Source of the DNA: an uncultured Gammaproteobacteria bacterium
GTDB taxonomy: Bacteria; Pseudomonadota; Gammaproteobacteria; UBA9214
DNA: 64,000 nt
Assembly (NCBI GenBank): GCA_963827755.1
Contig: CAWHCQ010000040.1
Span: forward strand, 1 to 64,000
Direction of reading: 5' to 3'
Shown one piece after another: positions 9,871 through 62,542 of the stretch (its first letter is position 1; the number at the start of each line of letters is the position of its first letter). A program made the position numbers and the translations under genes. A model generated the notes under the pieces. The model saw only the letters and a program-made list of their open reading frames with translations. It did not search any database and was not told the origin of the DNA.

Positions 9871-9897
9871 CTATCGGCCGGCCGGCGGGAAAATTGA
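9871..9897 (-). promoter_or_regulatory. sigma28 (FliA)-type promoter for the GGDEF-EAL gene
   Basis: TCAA-N15-GCCGATAG on the minus strand, immediately upstream of the ORF. Confidence 0.6.
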
Positions 9898-10066
9898 GCC
9901 CCCGCGTATCCGCCAGGGCGGCCGTCGCCGGCGACGCCTCTCGGGAACCCGGGATTACTTAATAAGTAGCTGTATTAAAATATATTTTTATAGATGCACT
10001 GGCGTGGAATCAAGCCCCGGACCGCAGGCGTATGGCCATACACAGGGTGCGCCTCGCATGGGATCC

Positions 10067-10140
10067 TCACTTATCACTATCACTTCTATCACATCTATCA
10101 CTTATCACCTATCACTTCGCCCTTACCACTTGTCACTTCT
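10067..10140. repeat. Degenerate short tandem repeat of TATCAC
   Basis: Six TATCAC copies between 10072 and 10115 plus TACCAC and TGTCAC variants; overlaps the 3' end of the DUF2919 gene. Confidence 0.7.
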
Positions 10141-10658
10141 CCCTTCTTGCGCCTCGCTTCCTTACCCTCCTCGCCAGCCACCGGGAAATCGGCAAATGTG
10201 TCCCTGACCCGCCGCGACACCAGCAGGTAGGCAAGGATGCAGGCGGCAATCACCAGCTGCCCCCAGCCCAGCAGGTTGATCTGGTAGGCCATGCCGACAA
10301 GCGACGGCACGAAGACAATCACGATATTCAATACCGCCGTTAACAGCAGCAGCTTGCCGCTGTTGCGCCAGAGTGTACGCACATGCTCCGTCGCCTCCGG
10401 TTTGCGCTTCATATAGGCATAGATGACCAGGAATACCGGCAGTGTCGCCAGGACCGCGAGGAAGAACCCGAAGTCATGCGGATAGACAAGGTCCTTCAGG
10501 CCGCTCACACTCGCCGATTTTGCGCCAAAGCCCATCTGTATCGTTGATGCCTTGAGGATCAAAGGTCTCAGGAAATAGGCGATGATCAGCCAGAGTTCGA
10601 AATTTATCTTCAGTGAAAGATATTTGTCGTAATCGGAAAAATTATAAAGTTTTGACAT
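10098..10658 (-). CDS. DUF2919-like membrane protein
   Basis: N-terminal YDKYLSLK..LWLIIAYFLRP and C-terminal YLLVSRRVRDTFADFP pattern; about four TM segments. Confidence 0.65.
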   Translation of the reverse strand: MSKLYNFSDYDKYLSLKINFELWLIIAYFLRPLILKASTIQMGFGAKSASVSGLKDLVYPHDFGFFLAVLATLPVFLVIYAYMKRKPEATEHVRTLWRNSGKLLLLTAVLNIVIVFVPSLVGMAYQINLLGWGQLVIAACILAYLLVSRRVRDTFADFPVAGEEGKEARRKKGEVTSGKGEVIGDK

Positions 10659-10736
10659 CAGTGTATTCCCGTAACTGCCAATGCATATATACCGGTAGCG
10701 TAATCATGTAATTAAAAGTCAGCAATCCCGGCAAAC

Positions 10737-58803: not shown

Positions 58804-59697
58804 TCACGCACGAATCAGCGTGCCAACGCCCTCATCTGTAAACAACTCCAGCAACACCGCATGCGCTACCCGCCCGTCTACGATATGGGCAGCCGTCACG
58901 CCTGTGTTTACCGCTGACAGCGCACAGCGTATTTTCGGCAACATGCCGCCGTGAATCGTACCGTCATCAATCAGGCGGGCCACGTCATCCGCATCAAGCC
59001 CGGTCAATAATCCCCCGCCCTTGTCCAGCAGGCCTTTCGTATTGGTCAGCAGCATCAATTTCTCTGCACCGAGCACCTCGGCCATGCGCCCCGCAACAAG
59101 GTCGGCATTGATATTGTAGGAATGGCCATCCTCACCGACTCCAATCGGTGCGATAACCGGAATAAAATCCCCGCTGACCAGCATGTTCACGACACTGGCA
59201 TCGATGCTTGCCACCTCGCCAACATGCCCCAGGTCAATAATCTCGGGGGCCTCAAGCTCGGGTAAATCACGAGTGATCGTCATCTTGCGGGCCCGGATGA
59301 GGTCGCCGTCCTTGCCGCTGAGCCCGACAGCACGGCCGCCATGGCGCGTTATCAGGTTTACGATTTCCTTGTTCACCAGGCCGCCGAGCACCATCTCGAC
59401 AACATCCATGGTTTCACTGTCGGTCACCCGCATACCTTCCACGAAGGTGGATTCCTTGCCGATTTTTTCCAGCAGTTGACCAATCTGCGGGCCACCGCCG
59501 TGCACCACGACCGGGTTTATACCCACCAGCTTCATCAAAACGATGTCGCGCGCGAAGCCGCTCTTCAGCTCCTCGTCGACCATGGCATTACCGCCATACT
59601 TGATGACCACGGTCTTGCCGCGGAATCGACGGATGTAGGGCAGTGCCTCGCTGAGGACATGCGCGACGTTTTTTGCAGCTTCAGGAGTCAGTGACAT
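58804..59697 (-). CDS. argB: Acetylglutamate kinase
   Basis: [22 protein letters not shown] and GGMLPK motifs. Confidence 0.96.
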
Positions 59698-59806
59698 GGC
59701 AGCCATTAACCGCACAGGGCGGTGAGCAATTCAGGTTCCTGCAGAGTGTACGCGGGAAAAAGGTGAACTAACAAGTGATCCGGGTTTTTTAAAAATCCCG
59801 GTAATT

Positions 59807-62473
59807 CTAGAACGGCAAATCGAGACCGGTGTCAACCTGCTGAATGACGCGCCTGAATTCACCCATGATGCGCATCAGGGCCGCATCATTGTCGGCCTCG
59901 AATCGCAACACCAGTACCGGCGTTGTATTGGATGCACGGATCAGGCCCCAACCATCATCAAAATCAGCACGCAACCCATCGATCGTGGAGACCGTGGCAT
60001 CACCAAAATGTGCCGTCTCCAGCAGCTTGTTCATAAACACCGGCGGTTCACCTTCCTGCATCTGCACATTCAGTTCAGGCGTGTTGATGCTGTCCGGCAG
60101 GCCGGCAAATACTTCAGCAGAGGGACGCTTGTCCTTGCCCAGTATTTCCAGCAGGCGTGCGCCCGCATAGAGGGCATCATCAAAACCAAACCAGCGTTCA
60201 CTGATAAAGATATGGCCACTCATCTCACCCGCCAGCAGTGCGCCGGTTTCCTTGATCTTTGCCTTGATAAAGGAGTGCCCGGTCTTCCACATCAGTGGCT
60301 TGCCGCCGTGCTCACGTATCATCTTGTCGAGATGGCGGGTACATTTAACATCGTAGATGATCTGGGCGCCGGGATTCCGCGTGAGGATATCCAGGGCATA
60401 CAGCATGAGGACACGGTCCGGCCAGATAATATCGCCCCCGGAGGAAACCACCCCGAGACGATCGCCATCACCGTCAAAGGCGAGGCCAAGATCCGCCTGG
60501 TTCGCGGCAACCGCCTTGATCAGGTCCTTCAGGTTCTCGGGCTTGCTCGGATCCGGGTGGTGGTTCGGGAAGTTGCCATCCACCTCACAGAAAAGTTCGA
60601 TCACCGTGCAGCCAAGCTTTTTCAGCAGTTGCGGTAGAACACCGCCCGCAACCCCGTTGCCGCAGTCAACCACCACCTTGAGTGGCCTGGAAACAGCCAC
60701 GTCTTTGCAAATACGTTCGATATAAGCGGGAACGATATCACGCGCATTCACCCGGCCCTGGCCGGAAATGAAGTTTTTCGCCTCGATACGCTCGCGTAAC
60801 TGCTGGATGGACTGACCCGAGAGGGTCTCACCATCAATCATTATTTTCAGACCATTGTAATCCGGTGGATTGTGACTGCCGGTCACGATAACACCGCTAT
60901 GGGTATCCAGGCTGTGCGTTGCAAAGTACAGGACCGGCGTGGGTACGCAACCGACATCCGTCACATTACAGCCCGTACTTGTAATACCTTCTGTCAGGGC
61001 CTCGGCAAGCTTGCGGCCCGACAAGCGGCCATCACGACCAACAACGATCGTATCCCGCCCCCGCTGCAGGGCTTCACTGCCAATGGCCCGGCCGATCAGT
61101 TTGACAGCCGCGACCGTCAGCGTCTGATCGACGATTCCACGAATGTCATAGGCCCTGAATATTGACGCATCAATACCGGTGTTTTCGTGGGTAGCGGGTG
61201 TATTATCCAGCGGAACTTCCTCCACAATCAGATTATCACTCGGTATGGCGGAATCATATTTTGCCGCCACCCCTTCTTTCATATCCGGCACCCTGGTTTC
61301 TTCTTCGGCGGGCCATTCCTGCGAGGCTGCCCGGGTGTCATTCGCTGCATCCCTTTCCCGAGGTGCAGCGTTGCCCGACTTATGGACAATTCCGCCGCCG
61401 GCAAGCTGGGTCATGAACTCGATCGAGGCACGCATCTCGACCAGGCCAACGGGGTATTCACGCCGCACGCGCCCGTCGCGGTAATCCTTGATCAGGGTTG
61501 CCATGCTGGCCTGATCCAGGCGCAGCGCGGCATTGAGCCGGCGAAACAATACCATGATCAGGGCAATAATAGCCGTCGCCGATGACAGAAATGCAGCCAG
61601 CACCCAGATACTCAGGCTGTCCAGGTACATCAGGCTGCTCATGGCCGGCCAGTAGGCAACCTGCCAGCGGCTGTCCCCGATCTTCAAGACCCGTTCTGCA
61701 GCGCCACTATTGAGGGCCGCGTCACCTGAAGATGCAACCTTTATCTGCGAACCCTGGACACCGGACTGCTGCAACTCGATATAGCCATTGAGCTCCGGCA
61801 GATTATCGAGGATATCCTGTAAAATGTTATTCGCTAACGACAGCATGATATGCCCGACGACACCGCTTCCCGCCGGGTCCATTACCCGGCGCACAATATT
61901 CACATGCTGCTGCGGTGAATTCACCAGGTGAACCTCGATCGGCGGCACCTTTTTACCCTGTTCTGCGGCACGAAGCTGGGTCAGCGCCGCATAACTGAGC
62001 GGCGGTGAAGCCTGCAAGTCGATCGTCTCGATACCCGGCAGCAACAGGCGCAAATTAATCGCATCCGGGTAAGCGTAACGCAGTGATTCTTCTCTTGCCT
62101 GTAATGCGCCCCGGGTGCCACTCATGAGCAATTCGGCAAGGCCGGGGTCTTTGGCCAGCATCGATACACTTGCGCCATAGTGATCCACCACAGCAGAGAC
62201 GCGCGCTGCCACCTGTTCCGTAACCAGGCTGGCTTCATTTTCAATTGCGCGCGTAATCGTCCCGGACATCAGCTGGAAACAGAACGCGGCAAGCACACCC
62301 AGTAATAACACGGCCGCAAGCAGGAGTTGCATGCGGACCCTGGCAAGGCTGGCGGTCTTGCTGCCACCCGCCAGTTGCGGTAGCGGCGTTGAGGCCGGTG
62401 TGCCGTCTTCTTTCTTCCTGCCCCTGAAGAAGCCAGGAAGTATAGATTTGCTTGTAATATCAGCTACGCCCAT
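59807..62473 (-). CDS. algC: Phosphomannomutase/phosphoglucomutase with an N-terminal two-TM periplasmic extension
   Basis: C-terminal IFRAYDIRG, TGSHNP, FDGDGDR, GEMSGH and RASNT; the first ~430 aa hold two TM helices and a periplasmic domain. Confidence 0.9.
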   Translation of the reverse strand: MGVADITSKSILPGFFRGRKKEDGTPASTPLPQLAGGSKTASLARVRMQLLLAAVLLLGVLAAFCFQLMSGTITRAIENEASLVTEQVAARVSAVVDHYGASVSMLAKDPGLAELLMSGTRGALQAREESLRYAYPDAINLRLLLPGIETIDLQASPPLSYAALTQLRAAEQGKKVPPIEVHLVNSPQQHVNIVRRVMDPAGSGVVGHIMLSLANNILQDILDNLPELNGYIELQQSGVQGSQIKVASSGDAALNSGAAERVLKIGDSRWQVAYWPAMSSLMYLDSLSIWVLAAFLSSATAIIALIMVLFRRLNAALRLDQASMATLIKDYRDGRVRREYPVGLVEMRASIEFMTQLAGGGIVHKSGNAAPRERDAANDTRAASQEWPAEEETRVPDMKEGVAAKYDSAIPSDNLIVEEVPLDNTPATHENTGIDASIFRAYDIRGIVDQTLTVAAVKLIGRAIGSEALQRGRDTIVVGRDGRLSGRKLAEALTEGITSTGCNVTDVGCVPTPVLYFATHSLDTHSGVIVTGSHNPPDYNGLKIMIDGETLSGQSIQQLRERIEAKNFISGQGRVNARDIVPAYIERICKDVAVSRPLKVVVDCGNGVAGGVLPQLLKKLGCTVIELFCEVDGNFPNHHPDPSKPENLKDLIKAVAANQADLGLAFDGDGDRLGVVSSGGDIIWPDRVLMLYALDILTRNPGAQIIYDVKCTRHLDKMIREHGGKPLMWKTGHSFIKAKIKETGALLAGEMSGHIFISERWFGFDDALYAGARLLEILGKDKRPSAEVFAGLPDSINTPELNVQMQEGEPPVFMNKLLETAHFGDATVSTIDGLRADFDDGWGLIRASNTTPVLVLRFEADNDAALMRIMGEFRRVIQQVDTGLDLPF

Positions 62474-62515
62474 AGTCCGCCATTCCAGTTGAATGATTAG
62501 TTACCTGTAAGGCAG

Positions 62516-62542
62516 CTATCGGCAGGCCTGTATATATCATTA
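62516..62542 (-). promoter_or_regulatory. sigma28-type promoter candidate for long-form algC
   Basis: TAAT-N15-GCCGATAG on the minus strand, ending 42 nt before the ATG. Confidence 0.5.

Follow-up and report, generated by a model that had tools for sequence, protein, structure and literature searches.

The sigma factor FliA (sigma28) is the textbook 'late flagellar' sigma factor, and flagellin and flgM are its classical targets. Here we describe FliA-type promoter motifs in DNA of a sediment-dwelling, uncultured gammaproteobacterium near Thiohalobacter and Thiogranum, a genome in which we found no match for four flagellar families. The DNA analysed is positions 1-64,000 of contig CAWHCQ010000040.1 (C40 below; assembly GCA_963827755.1), and "the window" denotes this whole 64,000-nucleotide (nt) stretch. 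The motifs stand before type IV pilus genes, a gene for a cyclic di-GMP (c-di-GMP) enzyme and a long form of algC, and from the sequence comparisons that follow we put the probability that they are genuine FliA-dependent promoters, serving such genes in a cell without a flagellum, at roughly 0.8.

Retention of fliA without flagella is already known from Legionella, where its targets are largely unknown; a conserved list of predicted targets is presented here. According to excerpts of a Legionella review, non-flagellate L. oakridgensis keeps fliA and flgM, L. londiniensis also keeps fleQ and fleN, and the L. longbeachae clade keeps fliA, fleN and fleR/S; in L. pneumophila the FliA regulon includes a GGDEF/EAL-PAS gene, and no pilus targets are reported in the excerpted text (PMC5655016). 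Similar to these Legionella species, as far as that text describes them, our genome appears to have lost the flagellar structural genes and kept fliA, an anti-sigma factor candidate and FleQ/FleN-type regulators, and its FlgM has to work without a flagellar export apparatus. In contrast to Legionella, predicted targets can be named here, and they are conserved: pilTU, the pilG-chp operon, minor pilins, algC and many c-di-GMP enzymes. A further difference is the anti-sigma candidate, a mini-FlgM of 50-55 amino acids (aa) that coexists with canonical FlgM in flagellate relatives, and the flagellar state changed at least three times within one genus, with FliA kept each time.

The available text of two further papers describes FliA control of c-di-GMP phosphodiesterases, namely E. 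coli yhjH and P. aeruginosa PA4367/bifA (PMC4866697) and, likewise, P. putida bifA (PMC5300878). As there, a sigma28 promoter before an EAL-type enzyme would tie a motility sigma factor to c-di-GMP levels; those excerpts concern single phosphodiesterase genes in flagellate cells, whereas here 8 of 27 GGDEF/EAL loci and two HD-GYP genes have a site, cyclases included, in a non-flagellate bacterium. For the promoter itself, the closest reference is P. aeruginosa fliC, with TCTAAAG from -36 to -30 and GCCGATAA from -15 to -8 (PMC12784957, in excerpt). These elements read TAAA-N15-GCCGATAA, with transcription starting 8 nt after the element, so the motif described here matches published sigma28 elements and their spacing; as in the P. 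aeruginosa sigma28-FlgM pair, the anti-sigma candidate contacts region 4 of the sigma factor, here in a structural model. Unlike the P. aeruginosa promoter as excerpted, positions 1-2 of the -10 are relaxed here (GAC/GTC/TCC-GATA), TCAAG is as common as TAAAG, and N16 is tolerated; the anti-sigma candidate has half the usual length, and a secretion checkpoint is impossible.

Lysobacter enzymogenes offers a third comparison, being, in the accessible parts of two papers, a non-flagellate bacterium that keeps flagellar type III export genes affecting twitching (PMC7277350, PMC9927559). Both it and the present bacterium are gammaproteobacteria in which flagellar leftovers act, or here would act, on type IV pili, but the Lysobacter leftovers are export-apparatus proteins, with FleQ reported lost in those excerpts, whereas here it is the export apparatus that is missing and the regulators that were kept. 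Control of twitching by FliA in Lysobacter was not borne out by literature searches or by the available portions of PMC4960238, PMC7277350 and PMC9927559; FliA has 0 occurrences in the text available from the latter two. In our literature search, which did not cover subscription journals, we came across no description of a sigma28 promoter for pilT, pilG, the minor-pilin operon or algC.

An earlier note on this DNA, made from the letters alone, had called five such motifs. Read back from the sequence, all five strings lie at the coordinates and on the strands it gave, with 15 nt between the elements in each, and each is oriented at the gene it had named, as judged by Pfam domains, by which genes in the window were identified. 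Together with two sites found here, the FliA-type promoters of the window are as follows.

9871 to 9897, minus strand: TCAA-N15-GCCGATAG, before a PAS-GGDEF-EAL gene; perfect core; predicted start near 9863
31948 to 31974, minus strand: TAAAGTTTG-N10-GACGATAA, conserved promoter of the pilG operon; predicted start near 31940
31924 to 31950, minus strand: TAAA-N15-GCCAATAC, the pilG site called earlier; its TAAA overlaps the -10 of the conserved promoter
48629 to 48655, plus strand: TAAAG-N14-GCCGAAAC, i.e. TAAA-N15-GCCGAAAC, before a small open reading frame (ORF); predicted start near 48663
51265 to 51291, minus strand: TCAAG-N14-GTCGATAC, i.e. TCAA-N15-GTCGATAC, before pilT-pilU; predicted start near 51257, 27 nt before the ATG
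57895 to 57921, plus strand: TCAAG-N14-GCCGATAC, a sixth promoter, missed earlier, antisense inside the 5' end of a TauE gene; perfect core
62516 to 62543, minus strand: TAAT-N15-GCCGATAG or TTAA-N16-GCCGATAG, before long algC; predicted start near 62508

A degenerate pattern drawn up earlier had 8 matches in the window against 0.27 expected, but it had been fitted to its own matches, and we therefore tested the published consensus genome-wide instead. The genome (G000) comprises 2.85 Mb in 52 contigs, with 91.8% completeness and 5.4% contamination. With 0 mismatches, T[AC]AA-Nx-GCCGATAA had 10 occurrences at x = 15 and between 0 and 5 at any other spacing, and all 10 sites at N15 were intergenic or at the 5' end of a gene. 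When the 8th base was dropped, perfect T[AC]AA-N15-GCCGATA occurred 22 times genome-wide, against 1-4 at in-phase spacings, and about 18 of the 22 were intergenic; the GGDEF-EAL promoter of the window is one of them. Further counts used this core of 11 positions (T[AC]AA plus GCCGATA, at most one mismatch), and the enrichment carries the caveat that the core was chosen, with the 8th base of the -10 dropped and TCAA admitted, after the genome's perfect sites had been viewed; the strict published consensus, too, peaks at N15. In 1,775 oriented upstream regions of the genome (338.6 kb), delimited by crude ORF-based gene calls, N15 gave 12 perfect and 26 one-mismatch sites, and other spacings gave 0.18 and 7.4 (standard deviation 3.4). 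N16 was also raised, with 4 perfect and 13 one-mismatch sites. The 40 upstream regions of the window (6,715 nt) held 5 sites at N15 where 0.15 were expected by chance (Poisson P = 5.5e-7). Motif frequency is thus far above background, with a peak specific to N15/N16.

Within the window, the core is matched without mismatch at the GGDEF-EAL and DUF4124 sites and with one mismatch at both pilG sites, the small ORF, pilT and algC. One more match lies at 18676-18703 on the plus strand (TCAAG-N15-GTCGATAC, N16 spacing), antisense in a peroxiredoxin gene and 189 nt before metK; it may be chance.

We next compared the upstream regions of orthologous genes in 21-30 genomes of the genus, flagellate and non-flagellate. 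Footprint rows were anchored on the best motif match per locus, and shuffled sequences provided a bound on the resulting bias. At pilT, whose orthologs within the genus are 88-97% identical, TCAAG-N14-G[TA]CGATA was present in 21 of 21 loci (20 at N15, one at N16), 34-37 nt before the ATG; shuffles gave 0/1,050 sequences with at most one mismatch, and the motif was found in 0 of 9 loci of other families. Many members of the genus also share another conserved block, CAAGTTGCCGATAT, some 30 nt farther upstream than this TCAAG; in the window the block is degenerate (caagttagcgtcat). At algC, TCAA-N15/16-GCCGATA directly follows the dut stop codon and has at most one mismatch in 24 of 26 genus loci, 16 of them perfect (shuffles, 1/1,300; spacers, 0.3 bits per column). 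In the window and in its two closest relatives the element is TTAA at N16; it can also be read as TAAT at N15, and it aligns with the TCAA-N16 of other relatives. T[CA]AA-N15-nCCGATA recurs in 27 of 29 upstream regions of orthologs or paralogs of the GGDEF-EAL gene.

The pilG operon required a correction. A sigma28-type promoter is present, as the earlier note had claimed, but the conserved one sits 24 nt upstream of the site it had called: TAAAGTTTG-N10-G[AT]CGATAA is kept with at most one mismatch in 29 of 30 genus genomes (shuffles, 5/1,500), with 1.89 bits per column in the -35, 1.88 in the -10 and 0.42 in the 3' half of the spacer. The site called earlier, which has A instead of G in the CGA core, is kept at the same stringency in 16 of 30 and would be a weak second promoter in tandem or else a conserved element of the leader. 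The sixth site, at 57895, has a perfect core in 28 of 29 genus loci, the 29th locus being incomplete. By frame arithmetic, the TauE wobble positions within its -35 and -10 (site positions 2, 5, 20, 23 and 26) are invariant and those in its spacer (8, 11, 14 and 17) vary, a pattern that would be expected of a promoter embedded in coding DNA. At the small ORF, the GCCGAAA variant of the -10 is kept, with diverged spacers, in the three closest orthologs (one mismatch in G012 and G019, two in G023, compared by eye); other matches there are paralogs. Footprinting thus upheld four of the five loci across the genus, and the small ORF in its closest orthologs.

These data make it hardly credible that the five motifs match a short, degenerate consensus by chance and were merely picked out by eye. 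Such an account can draw on the fitting of the first pattern to its own matches, on an arithmetic expectation of about 5 matches in 128 kb at two mismatches to a 12-position consensus, on four matches of similar quality in coding DNA of the window, and on two-mismatch N15 sites, which show no excess in genome upstream regions (80 vs 74). It is opposed by the 5 sites seen against 0.15 expected in the oriented upstream DNA of the window, by the restriction of the enrichment to N15/N16, and by the retention of orthologous sites in 21-30 genomes amid diverged spacers, of which shuffled sequences fall short. Elements carry 1.6-2.0 bits per column, and spacers and flanks 0.3-1.0, except for the TAAAGTTTG extension at pilG; this low spacer and flank information argues against wholesale conservation of the upstream regions.

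The genes behind the sites in the window are these, identified by Pfam domains where a family is given.

7004 to 9863, minus strand: PAS-PAS-GGDEF-EAL gene, in two ORFs (8214-9863 and 7004-8134), with GGDEF at 7838-8221 and EAL at 7049-7765
23443 to 31808, minus strand: Pil-Chp chemosensory operon, made up of the next five genes
31371 to 31808, minus strand: pilG
30696 to 31241, minus strand: CheW/pilI
29014 to 30807, minus strand: MCP/pilJ
23937 to 28946, minus strand: chpA-like Hpt-kinase-CheW-REC gene
23443 to 23946, minus strand: second CheW gene
48734 to 49015 (alternative start 48707), plus strand: 93-aa small protein beginning MDKEQRKG, no Pfam family
49051 to 51230, minus strand: pilT (50193-51230) and pilU (49051-50169), pilus retraction ATPases (T2SSE)
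58171 to 58800, plus strand: DUF4124 protein gene, likely target of the 57895 promoter, 250 nt downstream of it
59807 to 62473, minus strand: long algC, an 888-aa phosphomannomutase/phosphoglucomutase with PGM_PMM domains I-IV at residues 438-875

We then asked which factor reads the motif. In flagellate relatives, the flagellin genes have TAAAG-N14-G[AC]CG[TC]TA[AT] at -123 to -126 in 15 of 15 cases; a strict-core scan recovered 2 of 15 at one mismatch or fewer, and the GNCG[TC]TAA variant was seen in all 15 on reading the sequences. In all 15 genomes examined, the motif lies 31-86 nt before the mini-flgM gene. Because flagellin and flgM are classical sigma28 targets, the motif before both serves as an internal positive control. 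At the flagellin loci (L247-L261), the sigma28 promoter and the start codon are separated by a long, near-invariant leader, about 25-115 nt upstream of that codon; this leader contains an inverted repeat (ggaggcggtgaatatcac ... gtgatatatccgcc) and looks like a post-transcriptional control element.

The genome encodes a sigma28 homologue; as the earlier note had said, neither fliA nor a flagellar gene lies in the window itself. FliA (C12:143434-144093) scores 274 bits against TIGR02479 FliA_WhiG (cut-off 189.6), has sigma-70 regions 2, 3 and 4, and is the only match above the equivalog cut-off. It is very unlikely, in our judgement, that the element is real and bipartite and yet is read by another sigma-70-family factor or by a dimeric DNA-binding regulator. 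Four other sigma-70-family genes do match the FliA model, more weakly, the link between FliA and the sites is drawn from sequence, and the -10 variants GACGATAA, GTCGATAC and TCCGATAG depart from the textbook GCCGATAA at their first two positions; on the other side, published sigma28 promoters agree with the elements, with their spacing and with how far they lie from start codons, the same motif stands before flagellin and the FlgM-like gene, and FliA alone passes the equivalog cut-off. FliA is thus the probable reader, and the earlier proposal that a sigma28-family factor has been wired to twitching and surface sensing in this lineage is supported by the FliA gene, the enrichment and the footprints.

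The compact regulator locus, on a contig (C12) other than that of the window, runs from a FleQ-type sigma54 activator through a protoglobin-PAS-GGDEF-EAL gene and a MinD/FleN-like ATPase to fliA; a 184-aa ORF downstream of fliA matched no Pfam family. A sigma54-type promoter, TGGTAY-N5-TTGCW, lies about 90 nt before fleN in G000 and in 14 of 17 related loci scanned. All 14 are among the 16 closest FliA loci (81-96% identity), and the three loci without it are more distant (74-78%). A scan of the fliA locus as a whole with the sigma54 consensus gave no signal (15 matches vs 14.2 expected). The genome has rpoN. Profile searches of G000 gave no match for FlhA (FHIPEP), flagellin (Flagellin_N), rod/hook proteins (Flg_bb_rod), FliP or canonical FlgM, and FlhA and flagellin are likewise missing from the closest relatives, G012 (97% complete) and G019.

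Within the genus, 23 of 24 genomes encode FliA; FlhA is present in 12 of 24 genomes, and flagellin in 14 of 30. On an AlgC tree, a single-gene tree whose root is not established, the flagellar state needs 4 changes, of which well-supported branches force at least 3, and fliA was retained at each. Since flagellate species of the genus carry the same promoters, the sigma28 wiring of pili, c-di-GMP genes and algC appears, as judged from these comparisons, to be ancestral to the genus and genus-wide; it is older than the flagellar losses and not their consequence, which would explain why FliA survived each of them.

Across the genome, sites were concentrated before genes of c-di-GMP metabolism. 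A site was present at 8 of 27 GGDEF/EAL loci, compared with 49 of all 1,775 upstream regions (Fisher p = 2.8e-7). Genes for GAF-GGDEF, GGDEF, REC-GGDEF, REC-GGDEF-EAL and three PAS-GGDEF-EAL proteins lie behind perfect or one-mismatch sites, and perfect sites precede two HD-GYP genes (REC-HD-GYP and DUF3391-HD-GYP). Perfect sites also stand before the minor-pilin operon fimT/U(GspH)-pilV-pilW-pilX-pilY1-pilE and before a second pseudopilin operon. Further targets at perfect or one-mismatch sites are wall hydrolases (SLT, NlpC/P60 and M23), three DUF4347 adhesin-like proteins, GlmU and acyltransferases.

This distribution bears on a third account, in which the FliA promoters are genuine but secondary: the genes would be driven mainly by housekeeping or sigma54 promoters, with FliA adding a modest, condition-specific boost and being kept for some other reason. 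We consider this unlikely. In its favour, no FliA-type site with two mismatches or fewer was found before pilA, pilB, fliA, fleN or fleQ, and pilM shows a single weak one at N16, which places pilus assembly as a whole outside FliA control; the leaders of 130-250 nt at pilG and DUF4124 leave space for more promoters; and no FliA-dependent virulence gene had yet been identified in L. oakridgensis, according to the excerpted review (PMC5655016). Against a merely secondary role, the promoters are near-invariant amid otherwise diverged intergenic DNA of the genus, which points to selection on them. In addition, the element lies 27-35 nt from the start codon at pilT and algC, leaving little space for another promoter, and it directly follows the end of the upstream gene at algC and occupies a short intergenic stretch at pilT.

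A candidate anti-sigma factor lies close to fliA. Beside fleQ, and transcribed divergently from it, is a 55-aa FlgM-like ORF (C12:149947-150114; L006:15948-16115, plus strand), which in G000 stands behind a promoter of its own, TAAA-N15-GACGATAC. Flagellate and non-flagellate members of the genus alike have orthologs of 50-55 aa, and the flagellate members additionally carry a canonical FlgM in the flagellar cluster. Short FlgM-like ORFs linked to fliA in relatives score 22-34 bits, most of them over the Pfam cut-off and two below it, and the G000 protein is 39-60% identical to 14 aligned orthologs, a subset of those matches; a regular-expression search for mini-flgM in the fetched stretch of G012 found nothing. 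The predicted complex of FliA and mini-FlgM scored 0.71, and the best of 3 controls 0.00; the mark set for this score is reached by 116 of 157 solved complexes and by 2 of 215 mismatched pairs. Runs shared at least 67% of contacts, with a predicted local distance difference test score (pLDDT) of the partner of at least 69, and placed FlgM residues 28-48 on FliA residues 173-213 (region 4). Because solved sigma28-FlgM complexes exist, the prediction indicates likeness and is not proof of binding. Without an export apparatus (no FlhA or FliP was found), the candidate cannot be removed by secretion and, if it is an anti-sigma factor, must be controlled otherwise.

Several points weigh against FliA control of these genes. 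By arithmetic from genome-wide rates, about 5-6 chance matches of such quality are expected in the whole window on both strands, and 4 core matches do fall within its coding DNA, so position and orientation count as much as the match itself. Four of the five sites called earlier are off the core at one position, and about 28% of one-mismatch N15 upstream sites, as a class, are expected by chance (7.4/26). The upstream regions depend on a crude ORF caller, and best-match anchoring of the footprint rows inflates core conservation somewhat, an effect bounded by the shuffles. The small-ORF site, kept in only three orthologs, is the weakest of the five, and the pilG site called earlier is probably not the main promoter. 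The mini-FlgM of G000 scores 17.3 bits against a Pfam FlgM cut-off of 25 (E = 0.0056), FlgM being the sole family matched. At 91.8% completeness and 5.4% contamination, absence of the flagellum is likely but not proven; it holds for four independent families. Finally, sigma70 or other promoters may also serve the same genes.

If FliA does read these promoters, a cascade can be proposed. FleQ and sigma54 would transcribe fleN-fliA from the conserved TGGTAY-N5-TTGCW; FliA-RNA polymerase would then read promoters of the form T[AC]AA(G)-N15/16-G[CAT]CGATA; and mini-FlgM, itself behind such a promoter, would bind FliA region 4 and close a negative feedback loop. For the type IV pilus, the 'late genes' would cover its dynamic and regulatory half, with the pilG-chpA operon, pilTU and the fimT/U-pilVWXY1E minor pilins, and would leave out pilA and pilB. 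Outside the pilus they would take in about a third of the c-di-GMP enzymes together with algC and the genes for cell-wall hydrolases and adhesin-like proteins. We tentatively speculate, and regard it as possible without being probable, that the flagellar hierarchy (FleQ/sigma54, then FleN-FliA, then late genes) now functions as a stand-alone switch for surface behaviour. Its output would be pilus retraction and chemosensing together with minor pilins, a sugar supply dependent on algC, and many c-di-GMP cyclases and phosphodiesterases, which may in turn act back on FleQ. The gate of the switch would be a non-secreted mini-FlgM of 50-55 aa and no longer the completion of the hook. Since none of this output needs a flagellum, the flagellum would have become dispensable and been lost at least three times, with the switch kept under selection.

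The genus offers a natural experiment, with about half of the sampled species flagellate and half not, and a conserved target list to go with it, in which pilTU, the Pil-Chp operon, minor pilins and algC are joined by roughly a third of the c-di-GMP enzymes and by a mini anti-sigma factor. If the proposal is true, it would show how a flagellar checkpoint circuit is re-used for twitching and the sessile-motile decision, why a regulator outlives its organelle, and how a minimal FlgM is regulated without secretion. For annotators, it is also a warning not to infer swimming motility from a fliA gene.

Some features of the target genes remain to be described. The split of the GGDEF-EAL gene into two ORFs is probably an assembly frameshift. 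Alignment with its orthologs begins only at residue 20-46, and the true start codon of the gene probably comes after the GTG at 9863. A second PAS-GGDEF-EAL gene, at C41:8228-11059 of G000, is 78% identical to that of the window and is preceded by a TCAG-N15-GCCGATAG site; this gene is a paralog or else, given the 5.4% contamination, lies on a related-strain contig in the bin. The N-terminal extension of AlgC (residues 1-430) matched no Pfam family (best match dCache_1, E = 0.19), and the long form is kept across the genus. The gene order around it, coaBC-dut-algC-argB, is ordinary and presumably resembles that of Pseudomonas. The 93-aa ORF belongs to a small-protein family with several copies per genome in the genus, some of them tandem or fused; another copy lies at C40:96213-96455.

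Split or truncated genes occur in the window at 7004-9863 (GGDEF-EAL), 13512-14453 (pgk), 15867-17923 (transketolase) and 40659-42348 (phosphoglucomutase), which suggests assembly indel errors more than pseudogenes. Two metatranscriptome runs hold small shares of the stretch (0.09 and 0.05 of sampled words).

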